A stretch of 24,000 nt of DNA from Nitrospira sp. CR1.1 (GCA_014055465.1 WIAF01000015.1:64612-88611), one strand, 5' to 3'; shown: positions 2,774 through 22,483, numbered from the stretch's first letter. A program made the numbers and translations. Notes: a model not told the origin generated them from the sequence alone.

Positions 2774-4201
2774 TTAAACGAAGCCAATGCGGGCCGTGTT
2801 CGCGTTATCCGTTTGACGGGTTGGTGTTGCGTGCAAGGCCGCTAGCATATGTGCTTGCCCCAACCGTGCCTTTCCCGACCTGGCGGCCAATCGTGCGCCC
2901 TCTCGCACCATGAATGAGACATCAGACAACGGTCGTCCAGACAATGCCTTGGCGAGTGGTGTGATTTCGACATCGGGTTCAGTGGGTAAGGAAGACAGTA
3001 GGGTTGTGAGAAGATCTGCGATTTCTGGCTGAGTGGCATTCCCTACGAGGATGATATGGTCAAACCGTCCTCTTCTAAGAATGGCGGGGTCTATCATTTC
3101 AATTTTATTAGTCATGGCAACGACGAGCACTCCATGATGGACCGCTTCAGGAATCCGTCGAAGAAACTCGGCGACTTCTTCTACGCGATGATGTCCGACT
3201 CCGGGTGCTCTTTCGGCTAAGAACGCTTCCATTTCGTCAATGACGATGATTGAAGGTGAATGCTCTATGGCATCCGTAAAAACTTGAGCGACTTTTCGGC
3301 TAGTCTCGTGGATGTATGGACTCGCCACACTGGAAGCATTGATTTCGTAGCTAGGCCACCCTAAAAAATCGATCAACCGCTGCACCGCAAATGTTTTGCC
3401 ACATCCAGGTGGGCCATGAAGGACGACTGCCGATGGAAAGGTGATCCCAAGCGCCTTATAACGATCCGGATGTTCGATGATATCCACGACATGTTCGTTG
3501 AAAAACGTTTCGAGTTCTGGTCGCCCTGGTAATTCGAATCGGGCTTGGGGGGTGGTGGTACTTTTAGCGGGCTGAAGGGATGGTTGAGCGACTGCCACTG
3601 AATTGGGCGAAACGGGCTGAGAGTCCACCAGTGGTCCTTCATTGACGGAGAAGCCCGCCTCCTCAACGATATCCTTTAGGTGAGTGGCATCTAGCCAATT
3701 CAAAGTGTGAGTGAGACGCCGAAAGGATGTCACTGGGATTCGAGCACCTCCTGTGAGCCAATACCCCAACACGGTGGCATCATCGGTACAAGAACTGATG
3801 CTATAGGTAGGCAAAAGGCGTTGAAGCTTTTCGATGTAGAGTGAGTCCTGGAGCGGCGAGACACTGTCGCATGCTCTGGTCGCTTTGAGTGCGGTGGCAA
3901 AAGCAAGGGCTTCACTCTTCGAATTTGGGGCAGGTCCGGAGGAGACCGGACATAATAACTGGTCCGCAGGACTAGCGATCATAGAAAGCTGCAACGTGCC
4001 GAAGCAAAACCGAGGAAGTGTATTAGACGCTAATAAACCTGCGCAGATCCATTTTTCAGTGAGGTCTGCGGTGGCGAGCAGAGCGCGATTGCCGCCGACT
4101 GTTTGAACGATTTGCCAGCCCTGTCCCTCATACAGTGCTTGTCTCGTGGAACTACCATCGGGCAGGTGAAATCCAATTGGGAGCCAATTTACGAGCGCCA
4201 T
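2774..4201 (-). CDS. Classical-clade AAA+ ATPase (single AAA module, Cdc48/FtsH/Vps4-like) with an unrecognised N-terminal region of about 235 aa
   Basis: Walker A LHGPPGCGKT, Walker B IIVIDEMEAF, sensor-1 region VVAMTN, and second region of homology DPAILRRGRFD. The ATG lies 2 nt after the Hsp70 stop. Confidence 0.85.
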   Translation of the reverse strand: MALVNWLPIGFHLPDGSSTRQALYEGQGWQIVQTVGGNRALLATADLTEKWICAGLLASNTLPRFCFGTLQLSMIASPADQLLCPVSSGPAPNSKSEALAFATALKATRACDSVSPLQDSLYIEKLQRLLPTYSISSCTDDATVLGYWLTGGARIPVTSFRRLTHTLNWLDATHLKDIVEEAGFSVNEGPLVDSQPVSPNSVAVAQPSLQPAKSTTTPQARFELPGRPELETFFNEHVVDIIEHPDRYKALGITFPSAVVLHGPPGCGKTFAVQRLIDFLGWPSYEINASSVASPYIHETSRKVAQVFTDAIEHSPSIIVIDEMEAFLAERAPGVGHHRVEEVAEFLRRIPEAVHHGVLVVAMTNKIEMIDPAILRRGRFDHIILVGNATQPEIADLLTTLLSSLPTEPDVEITPLAKALSGRPLSDVSFMVREGARLAARSGKARLGQAHMLAALHATPTRQTDNANTARIGFV

Positions 4202-4203
4202 AG

Positions 4204-6690
4204 TTATCCAAGGACAATATTTGTTGGAGCTACCATATCGTCGTCGGCCGCGGTGCCGATCCTGGCACCCTCCAGCTGAGCAACAATGTGACGGACTTTC
4301 TCCATATCGCTCGCCCTGAGGGCTTCAGTACCGGCCGCTACCAGCTGCGCGTGTTCTTGGCAGTCAGGATATAAATGCACGGCCTCGGCAAACATCTTAA
4401 AGCGGTCAATCACGAACCAATCTTGCCTCCAAAGAATGAGGAAGTTCTTCCCGCGAAGTTCATCCAGATGCGATTCGAAGGTACTACTATAGCGCATGAT
4501 GACACTTTCAGCGGTCTTCACCAAATTTTCGAAGGTAGATATCTCCGAGGGGCGTGCGTGAGGACGCACATGCTTCTGAAAAAATGTCACAGCTTTGTCT
4601 AGTTCGAGCTGACGAATTGTCTTTAGATGTGTTTGACGAGTTTCAGCCAGCAGGCGTTTTAACTGTTGGACATCGTCGAGAGCCTGTTTGGTAGTCTCGG
4701 GATCCATCATCCCGACGGCGGTTTCAGCACGGCTCAGTCGTTCTTGGACTTCAGTCAAGCGCGGGTCGTCGACCTTTGAGACCATCTCGTCGAGGCGATC
4801 CTGGACCTGGCTGGCCTGTTCTTGAAGCAACTTGGCGGCCTTGCTGTAATCAATTTGACCCTCTTGGCGAGAATAGAAGTTTCGACTGTTTTGAAATGAG
4901 CCGCTGATTGAGGGAACTGATACTCCGAGGATGATTTGCCCGGAATCGAGAATCTCATACTCGCAGTGAAGCTCCGCTCCTGCGGATATGGCGCCATCCG
5001 AGAAATCTTGACCAGTAATTTTGAAGAGCCCGATAAAGCGATTATCCGTGATGGGGTCCTTGCAATCACCCTCCCAGAGTTTGAAATTTATTGAGTCGGC
5101 AGTGCCAGCCTTCAAGGACGTCTCAGCACGAAAGGATAATGCTCCCTTTTTGGGTAGAGGCTCGCCTTCCTGAATTAAGTAAATTAGCCCAACCGCACCG
5201 CCGATCTTGTCCTTGGCAGCGACGCCAATAGAGTGGGAAGCTGGTATGGCATCAATGGTCGCAGCTGTTCGAGATATTATCAGGTGAGACGTGTCAAGGG
5301 TTAGCGGTGACCCAGCGGCATCCAGCACATACACCTTGAAGCTATTCTCTCCCGGCCGGCTGAGGACCACGTCCACTGAGGCCCCGTCGCGAAGGGAAAG
5401 ACGACCGGAAGACCATCCGTTATCGAGACAGTCGATTTGAAACTCTGTGCCGAGGGCAATTGTGCCACTGACTTTTGCTAGAATCTTGGCTTTCAGATCA
5501 GGCGTCCGGCTTGTGTAGACAAAGGAAACCGAGACGGGTCCGCCGATCGTGATCGTTCCGCGCGATTTCTTCCGTTCTCGATTGGTTGTACTCCAGTCTA
5601 TCGATTCGGCAAATATTGCGGCCCCCTCCGCAACTGCGGTCATGGGGTTGATTTCACTCGAAGCGGCAATACCCAGTTCAGAAGATATTTTGTCGCGCAG
5701 TGGTTTGTATTGAGTGGGGCCTCCGACGAATATCATTCTTTCGACGTCTTGCGGCTCATATCCCGCTTTCCGCAAGGTAGTGCGAGCGGCCTCAATGGAA
5801 TCTAAAATTTTTGGAGCAATAAGTTCGTCAAATTCCTGTCGTTTGAACGGTACATCGACGTAAAGTTCTCTTCCGTTCTCATCTGTCAAATTGAGTTCTG
5901 TCTCGGAAAGGCTGATTAGGCTATCTTCTCGTTGTGATAACTCGATTTTAGCCTTTTCAGCCGCCCAGAGAGCCATCCGAGCCAGAGGCTTATAGCGCGA
6001 TTGCCTGTCAAACTCATCGGGTAAAGAGAAAGTGTGAAACAACCATGGCTTAACTACGGCATCGAAAATCTGGCGATCAAAGTCAGCTCCTCCGCACATC
6101 GCAATTCCGCCACCAGCTAAAAGGCTCACCCGTCCGGCTGTGCTCTGGGCGACGGCAATGTCCAGGGTGCCGCCTCCTAGGTCATAGATGCAAAAAAGGC
6201 CATCCTGCTTTCGTTGGCGCATGACGCTCATGACGGCGGCAACTGGCTCTTGCATCAGAGCGACTTGCCCGATCTGGGCAAGTGTGGCTGCAGTCGTTGT
6301 AGCGTCTTTTTGCATTTGATTGAATGCTGCTGGGACAGTGATGACAGTGCCGACTTCGTCACTATTTCGGATTTCTTCCGGTAGGTACCCAAACAGAGTC
6401 CGCAGGATTTCAGCAGAGCATTCTTCTGGCGTCATGGTGCGAGGCACAGCTGATAGATCAATTGGCGTATTAGTGCCCATGAACCGTTTAAATTTGACGG
6501 CAGCACGTTCGGGGCTTCGGGCCGCGCTTGCATATGCGCGCGAGCCGACATATTTCCCCCGTTTATCAAAAAAGATGGCTGAAGGCGTAACGTCATGTTG
6601 GTCCGGGCTCTTGTAAAGGCGTACAGTTTCACCGTTGTATGAACAAATGGCGCTATTGGTGGTGCCTAGATCGATGCCAACGTAATTCAT
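4204..6690 (-). CDS. Atypical Hsp70/DnaK-family ATPase (828 aa)
   Basis: Phosphate-1 motif GIDLGTTNS at the N-terminus, phosphate-2 IYDLGGGTLDIAV, and adenosine motif FVGGPTQYKPLRDKI. A DnaK-like beta substrate-binding segment is present (IDAIPASHSIGVAA ... NFKLWEGD ... NRFIGLFKITG). It is about 190 aa longer than DnaK. Confidence 0.9.
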   Translation of the reverse strand: MNYVGIDLGTTNSAICSYNGETVRLYKSPDQHDVTPSAIFFDKRGKYVGSRAYASAARSPERAAVKFKRFMGTNTPIDLSAVPRTMTPEECSAEILRTLFGYLPEEIRNSDEVGTVITVPAAFNQMQKDATTTAATLAQIGQVALMQEPVAAVMSVMRQRKQDGLFCIYDLGGGTLDIAVAQSTAGRVSLLAGGGIAMCGGADFDRQIFDAVVKPWLFHTFSLPDEFDRQSRYKPLARMALWAAEKAKIELSQREDSLISLSETELNLTDENGRELYVDVPFKRQEFDELIAPKILDSIEAARTTLRKAGYEPQDVERMIFVGGPTQYKPLRDKISSELGIAASSEINPMTAVAEGAAIFAESIDWSTTNRERKKSRGTITIGGPVSVSFVYTSRTPDLKAKILAKVSGTIALGTEFQIDCLDNGWSSGRLSLRDGASVDVVLSRPGENSFKVYVLDAAGSPLTLDTSHLIISRTAATIDAIPASHSIGVAAKDKIGGAVGLIYLIQEGEPLPKKGALSFRAETSLKAGTADSINFKLWEGDCKDPITDNRFIGLFKITGQDFSDGAISAGAELHCEYEILDSGQIILGVSVPSISGSFQNSRNFYSRQEGQIDYSKAAKLLQEQASQVQDRLDEMVSKVDDPRLTEVQERLSRAETAVGMMDPETTKQALDDVQQLKRLLAETRQTHLKTIRQLELDKAVTFFQKHVRPHARPSEISTFENLVKTAESVIMRYSSTFESHLDELRGKNFLILWRQDWFVIDRFKMFAEAVHLYPDCQEHAQLVAAGTEALRASDMEKVRHIVAQLEGARIGTAADDDMVAPTNIVLG

Positions 6691-19990: not shown

Positions 19991-20173
19991 TCAGGAGCGA
20001 TGCCGATTGGGACGGTAGACAGGGGCGAGGTGTCGGAGTTCGAGGGAGAGTGGGTGGCGTTGATAGTGCCGTCGTCTTTTGTTGTGCAAGATCCGGCGGA
20101 GGAACGGGTGGCCGACACTGATTCCGACGAAGAGCCCGCAGATGATAATCGCAAGGATCGGAGCGTTCTGCAT
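19991..20173 (-). CDS. Possible small single-TM protein (60 aa)
   Basis: GGAG lies 8 nt before ATG 20173. MQNAPILAIIICGLFVGISVGHPFLRRILHNKRRRHYQ has a hydrophobic helix followed by a basic tail. It is short and overlapped by spurious GC-rich ORFs, so it is tentative. Confidence 0.35.
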   Translation of the reverse strand: MQNAPILAIIICGLFVGISVGHPFLRRILHNKRRRHYQRHPLSLELRHLAPVYRPNRHRS

Positions 20174-20248
20174 AGTGGTCTCCAGAGCTAGGGGAAAGAC
20201 CAAAGGTTGGAACGGGGAGGCGTTCAGGTGTGCAAGAAACTGCGCCGC

Positions 20249-21649
20249 TCAAAGCGTAGGGGATAGCACGATGTGCGTCGAACGTGCTCGGGCCTCTTTG
20301 GGGTGTGTGATTAGGGTTTGCATAAAGTATCCGTACCCATCGCCACGCTGAACCAGTTTGCAGTATCGATACGAAATTCCTTGAATGAATTCTTTGCCGG
20401 TCCAAATGTTGAAGCTGCCTGAGACGCGTACTGCTACGCGCCCTTGGTAGGTTCCTGACTTCTTGCCCGAGGGCACGTTGGCCTTGACCAGATCCCCGGT
20501 TTGAAAGCCGTTGACTAGTTTGTGACGCATCAAGTGGCAACGCGGAAAGCCGTTTTTGCTGAGCCTGGTGCGCTGATATCTTCCGCGCCCCGTGCAGCGA
20601 AGCTCCAGGGTGTTTCGCTGCCAGCCCTTCAGCACGCTGAACTCGCCCACACACGCTGCATCGAGGGCATGAGTCTTGGGCACATTGAGGCGCTGGCGGT
20701 TGTACTTCGTGAGACCACCCGAGGCCAACTCCACCGGTAGGCCGGTTGAGTGCAGCGCCTGGGCAAGAGCCCAGCGCGTTGTGTTGACCGCTGCCGCATC
20801 CTTGAGCGGGCGCTTGGCCTGGTCCTGTATACGGCGCAGTGTCTCGGGCTGGTGAGCCAGGAAGATTTCGATCGGCTGCGCAGCCTTCTTCTGGTTGCAA
20901 CACTGGCACGCCAGCACCAGGTTGCTAATCCGGTTGCTGCCGCCCAGTGCCTTGGGTTGGAGGTGCTCAATTTGTAGCGGAGTGTCTTTGGCCTCGCAGT
21001 AAACGCACTGCCTGCCGAATTTTTCCAGCAGGTACTCTCGAACTTCGTAACCAGCCAGCGTGCCTTGCTGGTACTCGGTGCCGGAAATTTCTGGATTCTG
21101 CATCGCCTGCATGTCGAATCGTACCAGTTCGCAACTGATGTCCTTGATGGGGGCAAAGCGTTGAAGGCGTTTGACCCAGGCCAGCGTGGTATCTATGCGG
21201 TGCTGTAGGCTGGGTGGAAGCCAACCGGCAGAGCGAACGCGATTAAGAATGCGGGGTGCGCGGTAGCGCAGGTTGCCTCTGCGCCGACGACGCATGTGAC
21301 GGCGGGCTGTCAGTGACTCACTGATCTGGCGACCACGGTGCTGTAGCTCAAAAAGGCTCAGCACGGTAATAGAGGCTGGGGGCTGGTGCCGCACCAGCGC
21401 CATGCCCGTAGCCTTGCTGCCTGGATCGACTTTAAGGCGCACCGGCTGCACGATGGCTTCGGTGCGATTCTTAAGACGGATCACCAGAGGTACAGCGCGA
21501 TGGACGACAGCCCGTCCTTCTTTGAGAAGTTGCCTGGCCCTGGCGGGGTGGCAGGGCATCAGTGTCTGTCCTTCTCTGTTCAACACAAAAACCTGTGATT
21601 GAATTGGATTACTCCTTTGTTCTCGCCTTTCGGCGGTGACGTGTGCCAT
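20249..21649 (-). CDS. iscB: IscB RNA-guided endonuclease (OMEGA system; RuvC with HNH insertion)
   Basis: PLMP-domain motif GQTLMPCHPARARQLLKEGRAVV, RuvC-I LKVDPGSKATGMALV, and Arg-rich bridge helix RRHMRRRRRGNLRYRAPRILNR. GWLPPSLQHR and RuvC-II ISCELVRFD follow. The HNH is CVYCEAKDTPLQIEHLQPKALGGSNRISNLVLACQCCNQKK, and RuvC-III is KTHALDAACVG. The C-terminal region is GFQTGDLVKANVP...GRVAVRVSGSFNI. The exact start is uncertain (ATG 21649 or 21658; the track GTG 21730 probably lies inside the ncRNA). Confidence 0.88.
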   Translation of the reverse strand: MAHVTAERREQRSNPIQSQVFVLNREGQTLMPCHPARARQLLKEGRAVVHRAVPLVIRLKNRTEAIVQPVRLKVDPGSKATGMALVRHQPPASITVLSLFELQHRGRQISESLTARRHMRRRRRGNLRYRAPRILNRVRSAGWLPPSLQHRIDTTLAWVKRLQRFAPIKDISCELVRFDMQAMQNPEISGTEYQQGTLAGYEVREYLLEKFGRQCVYCEAKDTPLQIEHLQPKALGGSNRISNLVLACQCCNQKKAAQPIEIFLAHQPETLRRIQDQAKRPLKDAAAVNTTRWALAQALHSTGLPVELASGGLTKYNRQRLNVPKTHALDAACVGEFSVLKGWQRNTLELRCTGRGRYQRTRLSKNGFPRCHLMRHKLVNGFQTGDLVKANVPSGKKSGTYQGRVAVRVSGSFNIWTGKEFIQGISYRYCKLVQRGDGYGYFMQTLITHPKEARARSTHIVLSPTL

Positions 21650-22000
21650 GCGGCACATCTCCCCTCGACCATGTTGCAACCCAGCGTGGATGGCGGGGCC
21701 GTTTCGTAGCCACCCGTGCCTTGTCTGCACCGCCGCCTTCGAGTGCCTGGGACTGAGGAAGCATCCCAGGGTCGGTTCTTTAGCTCTAGTTGCAACGTAG
21801 ATTGGGACCTACCCATTCTTGATCTGGTCAACCTCGAGCTTGCCGGGAATCCTTTCTGCAAGCTCCTTCCTTTAGGGGAGGGGCGGTTGACTACTCCTTA
21901 GAGGGAAGCGGATTCCAACCCGCCTGGCTGCTTCAAAGCCTACCTTCCTGAACGCCTTACACTGAGAGGGATGATTCTGTTAGTCCGCAGAATCCACGGG
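21650..22000 (-). ncRNA. Candidate IscB omega-RNA scaffold (the 5' guide would lie further upstream; boundaries approximate)
   Basis: About 450 nt lie between the ssb stop (22100) and the likely iscB ATG, with no convincing ORF. On the minus strand, GGAATCC pairs with GGATTCC about 55 nt later. A hairpin CTGGGA-N11-TCCCAG is present, GTTGCAAC occurs twice, and GTGCC-GCAT-GGCAC spans the candidate start codons. Known IscB loci encode their omega-RNA directly upstream on the same strand. Confidence 0.45.
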
Positions 22001-22041
22001 CGACGATCGATGTGTGGGGATCGTCTACCCACATGGCCGGG

Positions 22042-22080
22042 ACCGGGACTCTGTCAGCGAGGGCCGATCTGAGTCCCGGT
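22042..22080. repeat. 10-bp-stem hairpin (ssb terminator and/or IS200/IS605-type left-end subterminal palindrome)
   Basis: ACCGGGACTC-N19-GAGTCCCGGT sits 20 nt downstream of the ssb stop on the minus strand. A second, weaker hairpin (TGTGGG-N9-CCCACA on the minus strand) lies at about 22007-22035. Confidence 0.4.
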
Positions 22081-22099
22081 GGCAGGCCGACGCACTGTC

Positions 22100-22483
22100 T
22101 TAATGATGCTTGCCCTCGCGGATCAGTTTGTACTCGAACGCGGCGACTTCCAAGGTGGACCGCTTGGTTTGTGTAGACTCATCAATCCATTCACGGTAGT
22201 CGAGGGTACCGAGGAGGAGAACCTGATCGCCCTTCCGTAAGGCATTGGCGAACTCTTCGGGCTTGTCGCCACGGTATGTAAACGGCACCCAGTTGGTCTT
22301 CTTGGCCGTTTGGCCATCCTTCATGTAGTTCCGATGAGAGGCCAATGAGCCGGTAACGATTATCCGGCCAGAGGTTAACGCGACGATCTCGGGATTCTGG
22401 CCGAGCTGACCGGCGATCTCGATTTTATTGGTGTCGCGATACGGTTTCTTCATTTCCTGGGGAGTCTGGGTGGATGTGTTCAT
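22100..22483 (-). CDS. ssb: Single-stranded DNA-binding protein (OB fold), short form
   Basis: AGGAGG lies 6 nt before ATG 22483. NKIEIAGQLGQNPEI ... KKTNWVPFTYRGDKPEEFANALRKGDQVLLLGTLDYREWIDESTQTKRSTLEVAA follows the SSB OB-fold pattern. The 236-aa track ORF is an Arg-rich, implausible upstream extension. Confidence 0.75.
   Translation of the reverse strand: MNTSTQTPQEMKKPYRDTNKIEIAGQLGQNPEIVALTSGRIIVTGSLASHRNYMKDGQTAKKTNWVPFTYRGDKPEEFANALRKGDQVLLLGTLDYREWIDESTQTKRSTLEVAAFEYKLIREGKHH

Follow-up and report, generated by a model that had tools for sequence, protein, structure and literature searches.

In a stretch of 24,000 nucleotides (nt) from Nitrospira sp. CR1.1 (GCA_014055465.1 WIAF01000015.1:64612-88611), referred to here at its full length as the window, we analyzed a gene for an RNA-guided nuclease, IscB, that lies just downstream of ssb. 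The locus very likely represents a fixed, non-autonomous ISC element of the IS200/IS605 type, which retains an intact IscB together with its omega-RNA, and the resulting complex would be aimed at an alternative allele of the same locus that carries no IscB. The element and its parts are listed below.

20234..21889, minus strand: element-specific segment, 1656 nt, present only in IscB-bearing copies of the backbone
20249..21658, minus strand: iscB open reading frame (ORF), with the Pfam domains RRXRR and HNH, PDB sequence matches and invariant catalytic residues
21653..21891, minus strand: omega-RNA scaffold (HEARO RNA), Rfam RF02033, full model
21892..21907, minus strand: putative 16-nt guide, flank-derived, directly 5' of the scaffold
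20234..20275, minus strand: degenerate IscB-distal transposon end, homologue of the family's subterminal hairpin region, overlapping the last iscB codons
20225..20233, minus strand: 9-nt junction stretch common to IscB and IscB-less alleles; homology between the two resumes at 20233

The protein is encoded by a single long minus-strand ORF, which the ORF list of the window gives as 20249..21730. Starting from the ATG at 21649 results in a reading of 466 aa, and taking the ATG at 21658 into account places the protein in the range of 466-469 aa. The start codon is slightly uncertain, because the nearest genomic match to the locus, L006, has lost the ATG at 21649 yet retains the in-frame ATG at 21658, which is thus kept in both allele types of iscB. 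The 466-aa reading matched the Pfam family RRXRR (PF14239) over positions 1-174/174 with an E value of 2e-68, and three HNH models (HNH, HNH_5 and HNH_4) were placed by Pfam at residues 215-257, with PF01844 and PF14279 matching residues 215-256. A preliminary description of this DNA had claimed an intact IscB and listed its motifs: a PLMP-type TLMP, the RuvC-I D, the bridge helix, the RuvC-II E, an HNH with its CxxC pairs and His, and the RuvC-III H..D. All of these are present, with TLMP at residues 29-32 and the Arg-rich helix at about residues 116-133, where the run of Arg starts at residue 120.

Alignment of the window protein with nine homologues (64-83% identity; lengths of 418-541 aa, compared to 466-469 aa for the window IscB) revealed none of the disrupted catalytic residues that the same description had considered as a possible outcome. 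Both catalytic and zinc residues are invariant, the invariant positions being M31-P32 of TLMP, D75, E174, C215, C218, H229, N243, C248, C251, N252, H327 and D330, and the C-terminal region (residues 335-441), expected to interact with the target-adjacent motif, contains many invariant columns. The small size of the protein agrees with an IscB, a nuclease type without a REC lobe. The RuvC-II residue E174 and the RuvC-III residues H327/D330 also align with the same motifs in solved IscB structures. A sequence search of the PDB returned matches to IscB, IsrB and small Cas9 entries exclusively, the best being TbaIscB (9K30, E 4.8e-42) and OgeuIscB (7XHT, E 3.5e-24), and in these alignments the DPG, CEL, HNH and H..D motifs are in register. 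The family is very large, with at least 8000 relatives at E < 1e-3 in a protein search; the best named relatives, found in Diaphorobacter (72% identity), Malikia and Paraburkholderia, bear the title 'RNA-guided endonuclease IscB'. The window ORF is an intact IscB, a genuine and ordinary member of a described family. RNA-guided cleavage of double-stranded DNA dependent on a target-adjacent motif (TAM) is the established core activity of that family and, by analogy, would be expected of the window protein.

Upstream of iscB and on the same strand, the HEARO model RF02033 matched over its full length (model positions 1-211/211) with a score of 99.1 bits, above the gathering threshold of 83 (E 1.5e-19), and HEARO was the sole Rfam family matched in the whole window. 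Altae-Tran et al. 2021 reportedly equated HEARO RNA with the IscB omega-RNA. The matched scaffold spans 239 nt, its 3' end overlaps the start of iscB, its minimum-free-energy fold has a z-score of -2.2, and the first stem of the RNA is present in the HEARO alignment at the near end of the element. All four element copies tested score 89-99 bits with the model, and the differences that L006 shows in two inspected stems (at 21791 and 21748) keep the pairs as G-U wobbles, as judged by eye. HEARO was later recognized as the IscB omega-RNA, and some 3' parts of the RNA are possibly lacking in the Rfam model (Meers et al., bioRxiv 10.1101/2023.03.14.532601); the true 3' end may extend beyond the match. 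The preliminary description had envisaged a structured region of 350-450 nt on the same strand as a candidate omega-RNA. The structured RNA itself is confirmed by the covariance model, and its size was overestimated, as the remaining ~190 nt up to the ssb stop codon (21908-22099) are backbone that is also found in copies without IscB. Just past that stop codon, at 22040-22095 on the minus strand, lies a 9-bp inverted repeat without a U-tract. This repeat is part of the backbone and lies outside the omega-RNA, and it explains some of the stems that had been described earlier.

The putative guide was located by the point at which conservation among upstream regions ends. All 25 related elements compared, which come from many hosts, share a scaffold that starts at GTCAAY, and the sequence in front of it is unrelated among them, a variability that fits the expectation for a flank-derived guide. 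We assumed a guide length of 16 nt from published IscB systems. The resulting 16-mer has no other match at ≤2 mismatches in the 4.45-Mb genome, and in the window it is scaffold DNA, not a target motif, that comes next to it. A search of the minus strand between ssb and the omega-RNA revealed neither a sigma-70-like promoter nor a terminator-like site, which makes read-through from ssb plausible, and such read-through is probably the source of the RNA. It would also fit the published bias of these elements towards the orientation of the upstream gene (Meers et al., bioRxiv 10.1101/2023.03.14.532601).

The extent of the element was obtained from natural alleles with and without IscB. A metagenome scan with the SSB protein yielded 20 loci of the same ssb backbone, and boundaries were determined by blastn of the window against 22 related loci. 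Three of the 20 ssb loci (L065, L068 and L071) carry the element colinearly, each with a HEARO match. In 16 others, which lack it, homology to the window breaks off at 21890 and begins again at 20233, and the gap is filled by 212 nt of unrelated, highly conserved non-coding sequence; the remaining locus, L077, has no more than the first 88 nt of this stretch. The boundaries of the element-specific segment are ambiguous by 2 nt on the ssb side and by 9 nt on the far side. Both alleles occur in backbones that share about 99.5% identity with the window, as seen from the comparison of L065 with the IscB-less L066, from which the coordinates of the alternative sequence are taken:

L066:5595-5806: 212-nt non-coding stretch downstream of ssb, found in 16 of the 20 backbone copies; its equivalent position in the window lies between 21890 and 20233

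The uninterrupted allele has GT/GATGAT at the junction (the slash indicating the point between GT and GA) and no target-site duplication is seen, but its 212 nt are absent from the IscB allele. The IscB-less allele is therefore not a clean empty site. Apart from this, the window positions 20140-21100 (minus strand) form a mosaic when compared to L006, L068 and L071, with identity of 59-89% inside and 97-100% in the flanks. It extends from the 3' half of iscB across the degenerate end into the small ORF downstream, of which it takes in about the first 12 codons, and its sharp limits indicate that diverged versions of this locus have recombined.

Comparison with the family suggests what the element recognized upon insertion. 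At the far end of related elements, a hairpin of 7-8 bp is followed by a conserved run, 3-4 nt, and then GATGAA (29 of 39) or GATGAT (5 of 39), after which family similarity ends; a GATG-type hexamer was found there in 39 of the 48 relatives. In the IscB-less allele, the sequence that follows the guide match is GT and then GATGAT. ISC transposons were shown by means of empty sites to use GT/GG, GT/RA or N/ATGA targets without creating a duplication (Kapitonov et al. 2016, PMC4810608), and ATGA is cited in a review as the TAM of AwaIscB (PMC11278801). Insertion between GT and GA reproduces the left junction of the window exactly, whereas the N/ATGA model, which we rejected, leaves a misfit of 3 nt. 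We estimate the chance of finding GATGAT within a few bases of the junction at a few in a thousand, and GT/GATGAT is likely to be the target motif, of the published GT/GA or ATGA type. We also looked for an escape signature in the guide-matching target of the IscB-less alleles and dropped this idea, as substitutions are no denser there than in the 20 nt that follow.

The two ends of the element differ in their state of preservation. The near end begins with GTCAAC, as in 25 of 25 relatives, and its first RNA hairpin is intact. The far end (20234..20275) still aligns with the conserved end of the family, but its stem has 4 bp compared to 7-8 bp in multi-copy relatives, with a folding energy of -4.1 kcal/mol and a z-score of 0, i.e. 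no better than shuffled sequence, and no GATGA motif follows it in the window. The genome contains one HEARO and one IscB, and all six loci that have the element have it at the same site. As the preliminary description had noted, no tnpA appears in the ORF list of the window. The only Y1_Tnp match of the genome is weak (36.6 bits) and its ORF does not continue past the HUH region; no usable TnpA was found in the genome. The lost target motif, the degenerate hairpin, the lack of a usable TnpA and the single copy together suggest that the element is probably no longer mobile and is fixed in place.

A currently mobile IS200/IS605 element is highly improbable in view of these data. The preserved near end would be compatible with mobility, and most iscB genes have no adjacent tnpA and rely on supply in trans (Meers et al., bioRxiv 10.1101/2023.03.14.532601); the single genomic copy, the one site shared by all six loci, the missing GATGAA and the 4-bp stem at the far end, and a sole Y1-type candidate that resembles a truncated RAYT-like fragment all argue against it. 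As for this candidate itself (G000:C20:115426-115674; L058:1120-1794), it contains an HUH motif and stops before the region where the catalytic tyrosine is expected, so that by eye it looks like a truncated REP-associated (RAYT-like) fragment.

Despite the presumed loss of mobility, the gene shows signs of purifying selection. Between the window type and the L006 type of iscB, the synonymous divergence dS is 0.23 and the nonsynonymous divergence dN is 0.065, giving a dN/dS ratio of 0.28 without an indel or stop over 1365 nt. These values bear on the alternative of a decaying relic, in which IscB and its RNA are no longer used and disabling mutations have simply not accumulated yet. Such a relic would explain an immobile element with a degenerate far end and an IscB whose C-terminal tail is shorter than that of the family, and the window-type copies, being at least 99% identical, say little about selection. 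We nevertheless regard it as unlikely, because the two allele types have stayed open over a dS of 0.23 with the dN/dS given above, all catalytic residues are invariant, and the RNA keeps 89-99 bits in all four copies tested.

Taken in sequence, the history that we favor, a fixed ISC element with an intact IscB and omega-RNA, would comprise the following steps. An ISC-type element (20234-21891, minus strand) would have inserted downstream of ssb on the plasmid/ICE-like backbone, at a target of the GT/GA type that IscB-less copies still show, and a deletion of ~221 nt between short similar sequences would then have removed the target motif together with the 212-nt stretch. In line with such a deletion, the 9-nt junction stretch resembles the family terminus at 7 of 10 positions, as judged by eye. 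With the far-end hairpin decayed and no usable TnpA at hand, the element would have become fixed in place. Its omega-RNA would be made by read-through from ssb, and the guide, a copy of the flank (21907-21892), would direct the complex of IscB and omega-RNA to the uninterrupted IscB-less allele. This target is suggested because the IscB-less allele is the sole natural sequence found that combines a guide match with a motif of the family type. The resulting break could be repaired from an IscB-bearing copy, which would amount to homing, or the rival copy could be lost. That the complex is aimed at the IscB-less allele, with its conversion or the loss of the rival copy as the outcome, we put at about one in three.

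Several observations weigh against this history. Among the loci examined, no intermediate was found that has both the element and the 212-nt stretch, and the proposed deletion depends on the similarity of 7 out of 10 positions. The guide ends just before GTCAAC, so that the protospacer of the IscB-less allele and the ATGA after it are separated by 3 nt instead of abutting, which makes the TAM register of the candidate target uncertain; likewise, the left junction is exact under the GT/GA model only, and is off by 3 nt under N/ATGA. Recombination has shaped the locus, since divergence is far greater in the 3' half of iscB and in the 90 nt after it (81-89% identity, falling to 59-77%) than in the flanks (97-100%), and part of the divergence behind the low dN/dS may have arisen elsewhere and arrived by recombination. 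Finally, the genome is assembled in 32 contigs, and a TnpA could sit in unassembled repeats.

Two further proposals concern the benefit of keeping such a module. In the first, which we consider fairly unlikely, the immobilized IscB and omega-RNA would be kept as an allele drive or as a killer of competing IscB-less backbone variants, cutting at the guide match next to GT/GATGAT, with the repair replacing the 212-nt stretch, taken as a conserved, structured RNA leader in front of a small membrane-protein gene, with the nuclease cassette. In the second, the module would have been taken over by the backbone for the exclusion of competing variants or invaders, or for RNA-guided regulation. The module is fixed yet its gene is conserved, it resides within a block of replication and establishment genes, and backbones 99.5% identical to the window occur with either allele (L065 and L066), all of which a takeover would accommodate. 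However, the guide is identical to the flank, which is the normal state for an ISC element, its sequence is not matched elsewhere in the genome, and there is no sign of retargeting, so that we find a takeover decidedly unlikely.

The fixed element with its intact nuclease can be placed among known systems in some detail. Like the ISC transposons described previously (PMC4810608), it has a length of ~1.66 kb, a single iscB, no tnpA and a 5' GT(CA) terminus, and the uninterrupted allele, although not a clean empty site, shows a target of the GT/GA or ATGA type with no target-site duplication seen; unlike them, its far end has lost the target motif and most of the hairpin, and 212 nt of backbone are missing where it inserted. 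The RNA is arranged as in HEARO (RF02033), i.e. upstream of iscB on the same strand, with its 3' end overlapping the ORF and a variable guide at the 5' end. The protein shares its domain order (PLMP, RuvC-I, bridge helix, RuvC-II, HNH, RuvC-III and the C-terminal TAM-interacting region) with OgeuIscB (7XHT, 7UTN), TbaIscB (9K30), AwaIscB and GstIscB, and the catalytic motifs align. The similarity to OgeuIscB is distant (phmmer E 3.5e-24) and covers part of the protein, and the nearest named relatives are uncharacterised proteins from Burkholderiales with 65-72% identity. As in the case of AwaIscB, whose cited TAM is ATGA (PMC11278801), the end motif of the window's family contains ATGA.

The locus also resembles the donor-joint model of targeting and homing that was proposed for TnpB and IscB (Meers et al., bioRxiv 10.1101/2023.03.14.532601), in that the guide equals the flank, a natural uninterrupted allele has the guide match and the motif, and the element is oriented as the upstream gene. 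It differs from that model in that the IscB-less allele holds 212 nt and is not a simple donor joint; because of this extra sequence, conversion would replace sequence rather than only insert it. IscB, omega-RNA and ISC transposons have all been described, and the locus adds a member rather than a principle. The exact boundaries, the natural alternative allele, the likely target motif, and the probable loss of mobility with the gene retained add detail to the picture and leave its kind as it was. The near-identical metagenome backbones with and without the element make it a natural test case, as they provide the guide, the likely motif and the boundaries, and the locus presents an RNA-guided nuclease that has remained intact beyond the probable loss of its transposon's mobility. 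Should the nuclease prove active, RNA-guided homing between plasmid variants could be tested directly with the two alleles.

The 212-nt stretch of the IscB-less copies has distinct features of its own. It is conserved at about 93% (by eye) even where the flanks are only about 70% identical, and its predicted hairpins are supported by a C-G to U-G to U-A series at columns 20/45 and by an A-U to C-G change at columns 109/131. No credible Rfam match was obtained, even at E values up to 10, and no match was found in plasmids, in the genomes of the genus or in the window's own genome. We rejected a miniature transposon or an orphan omega-RNA as its identity, since it occurs nowhere else and has no similarity to HEARO, and likewise rejected a 28-codon ORF within it as a gene, because each of the six substitutions counted by eye changes the amino acid and the ATG is lost in one lineage. 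The stretch is located just upstream of the 60-aa hydrophobic ORF that follows the element in the window, a position which suggests that it could be a leader or a small-RNA region; a function resembling a type I toxin-antitoxin region is only an idea. In L077 (4595-5031), the first 88 nt of the stretch are followed by unrelated sequence, and since precisely these 88 nt are shared before the divergence, that part behaves as a separate module.

The immediate neighbors of the element lie on the same strand:

22100..22483, minus strand: ssb, upstream neighbor, Pfam SSB (E 1.6e-16)
19991..20173, minus strand: 60-aa hydrophobic ORF from the ORF list, downstream neighbor

No Pfam family was matched by the 60-aa ORF. 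In L006, where its N-terminus has diverged, it still has a Shine-Dalgarno sequence and an ATG. The placement of iscB just downstream of ssb in a plasmid- or ICE-like (integrative and conjugative element) backbone, as proposed in the preliminary description, agrees with the SSB match and with the gene content of the window neighborhood, in which Pfam identified a ParM-like ALP (actin), a CHAP peptidase, SSB, RNase H, a SLOG protein and an SF1 helicase. The window is located at the end of an 88.6-kb contig, and the GC content of this contig is lower than that of the genome (54.7% vs 58.3%), which also speaks for such a backbone.

The search for relatives of the whole region gave a limited set of matches. 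The nearest genomic match, L006, is a contig of a metagenome-assembled genome labelled Nitrospira sp. RBC083 and is colinear with the window over 7.7 kb at 95.8% identity. Among 39 genomes of the same genus, the backbone was found in two others, one with the entire 4.2-kb region including the element at 99% and the other as a 617-bp fragment, and no empty site was found among these 39. A megablast search of the PLSDB plasmids gave no match to the locus, and IMG/VR contained no relative of the window SSB and only distant relatives of the IscB.

Elsewhere in the window, positions 2774-6690 (minus strand) encode an 828-aa protein with an Hsp70-like N-terminal ATPase and, next to it, a 475-aa AAA+ ATPase; the two are flanked by proteins without a Pfam match and are an unusual pair for a mobile element. 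At the level of the assembly, the three contigs C10, C12 and C13 have similar sizes of 88-95 kb and GC contents of 54.7-55.7%, compared to 58.3% for the genome, and two or more mobile elements, extrachromosomal or integrated, may be present in the assembly.

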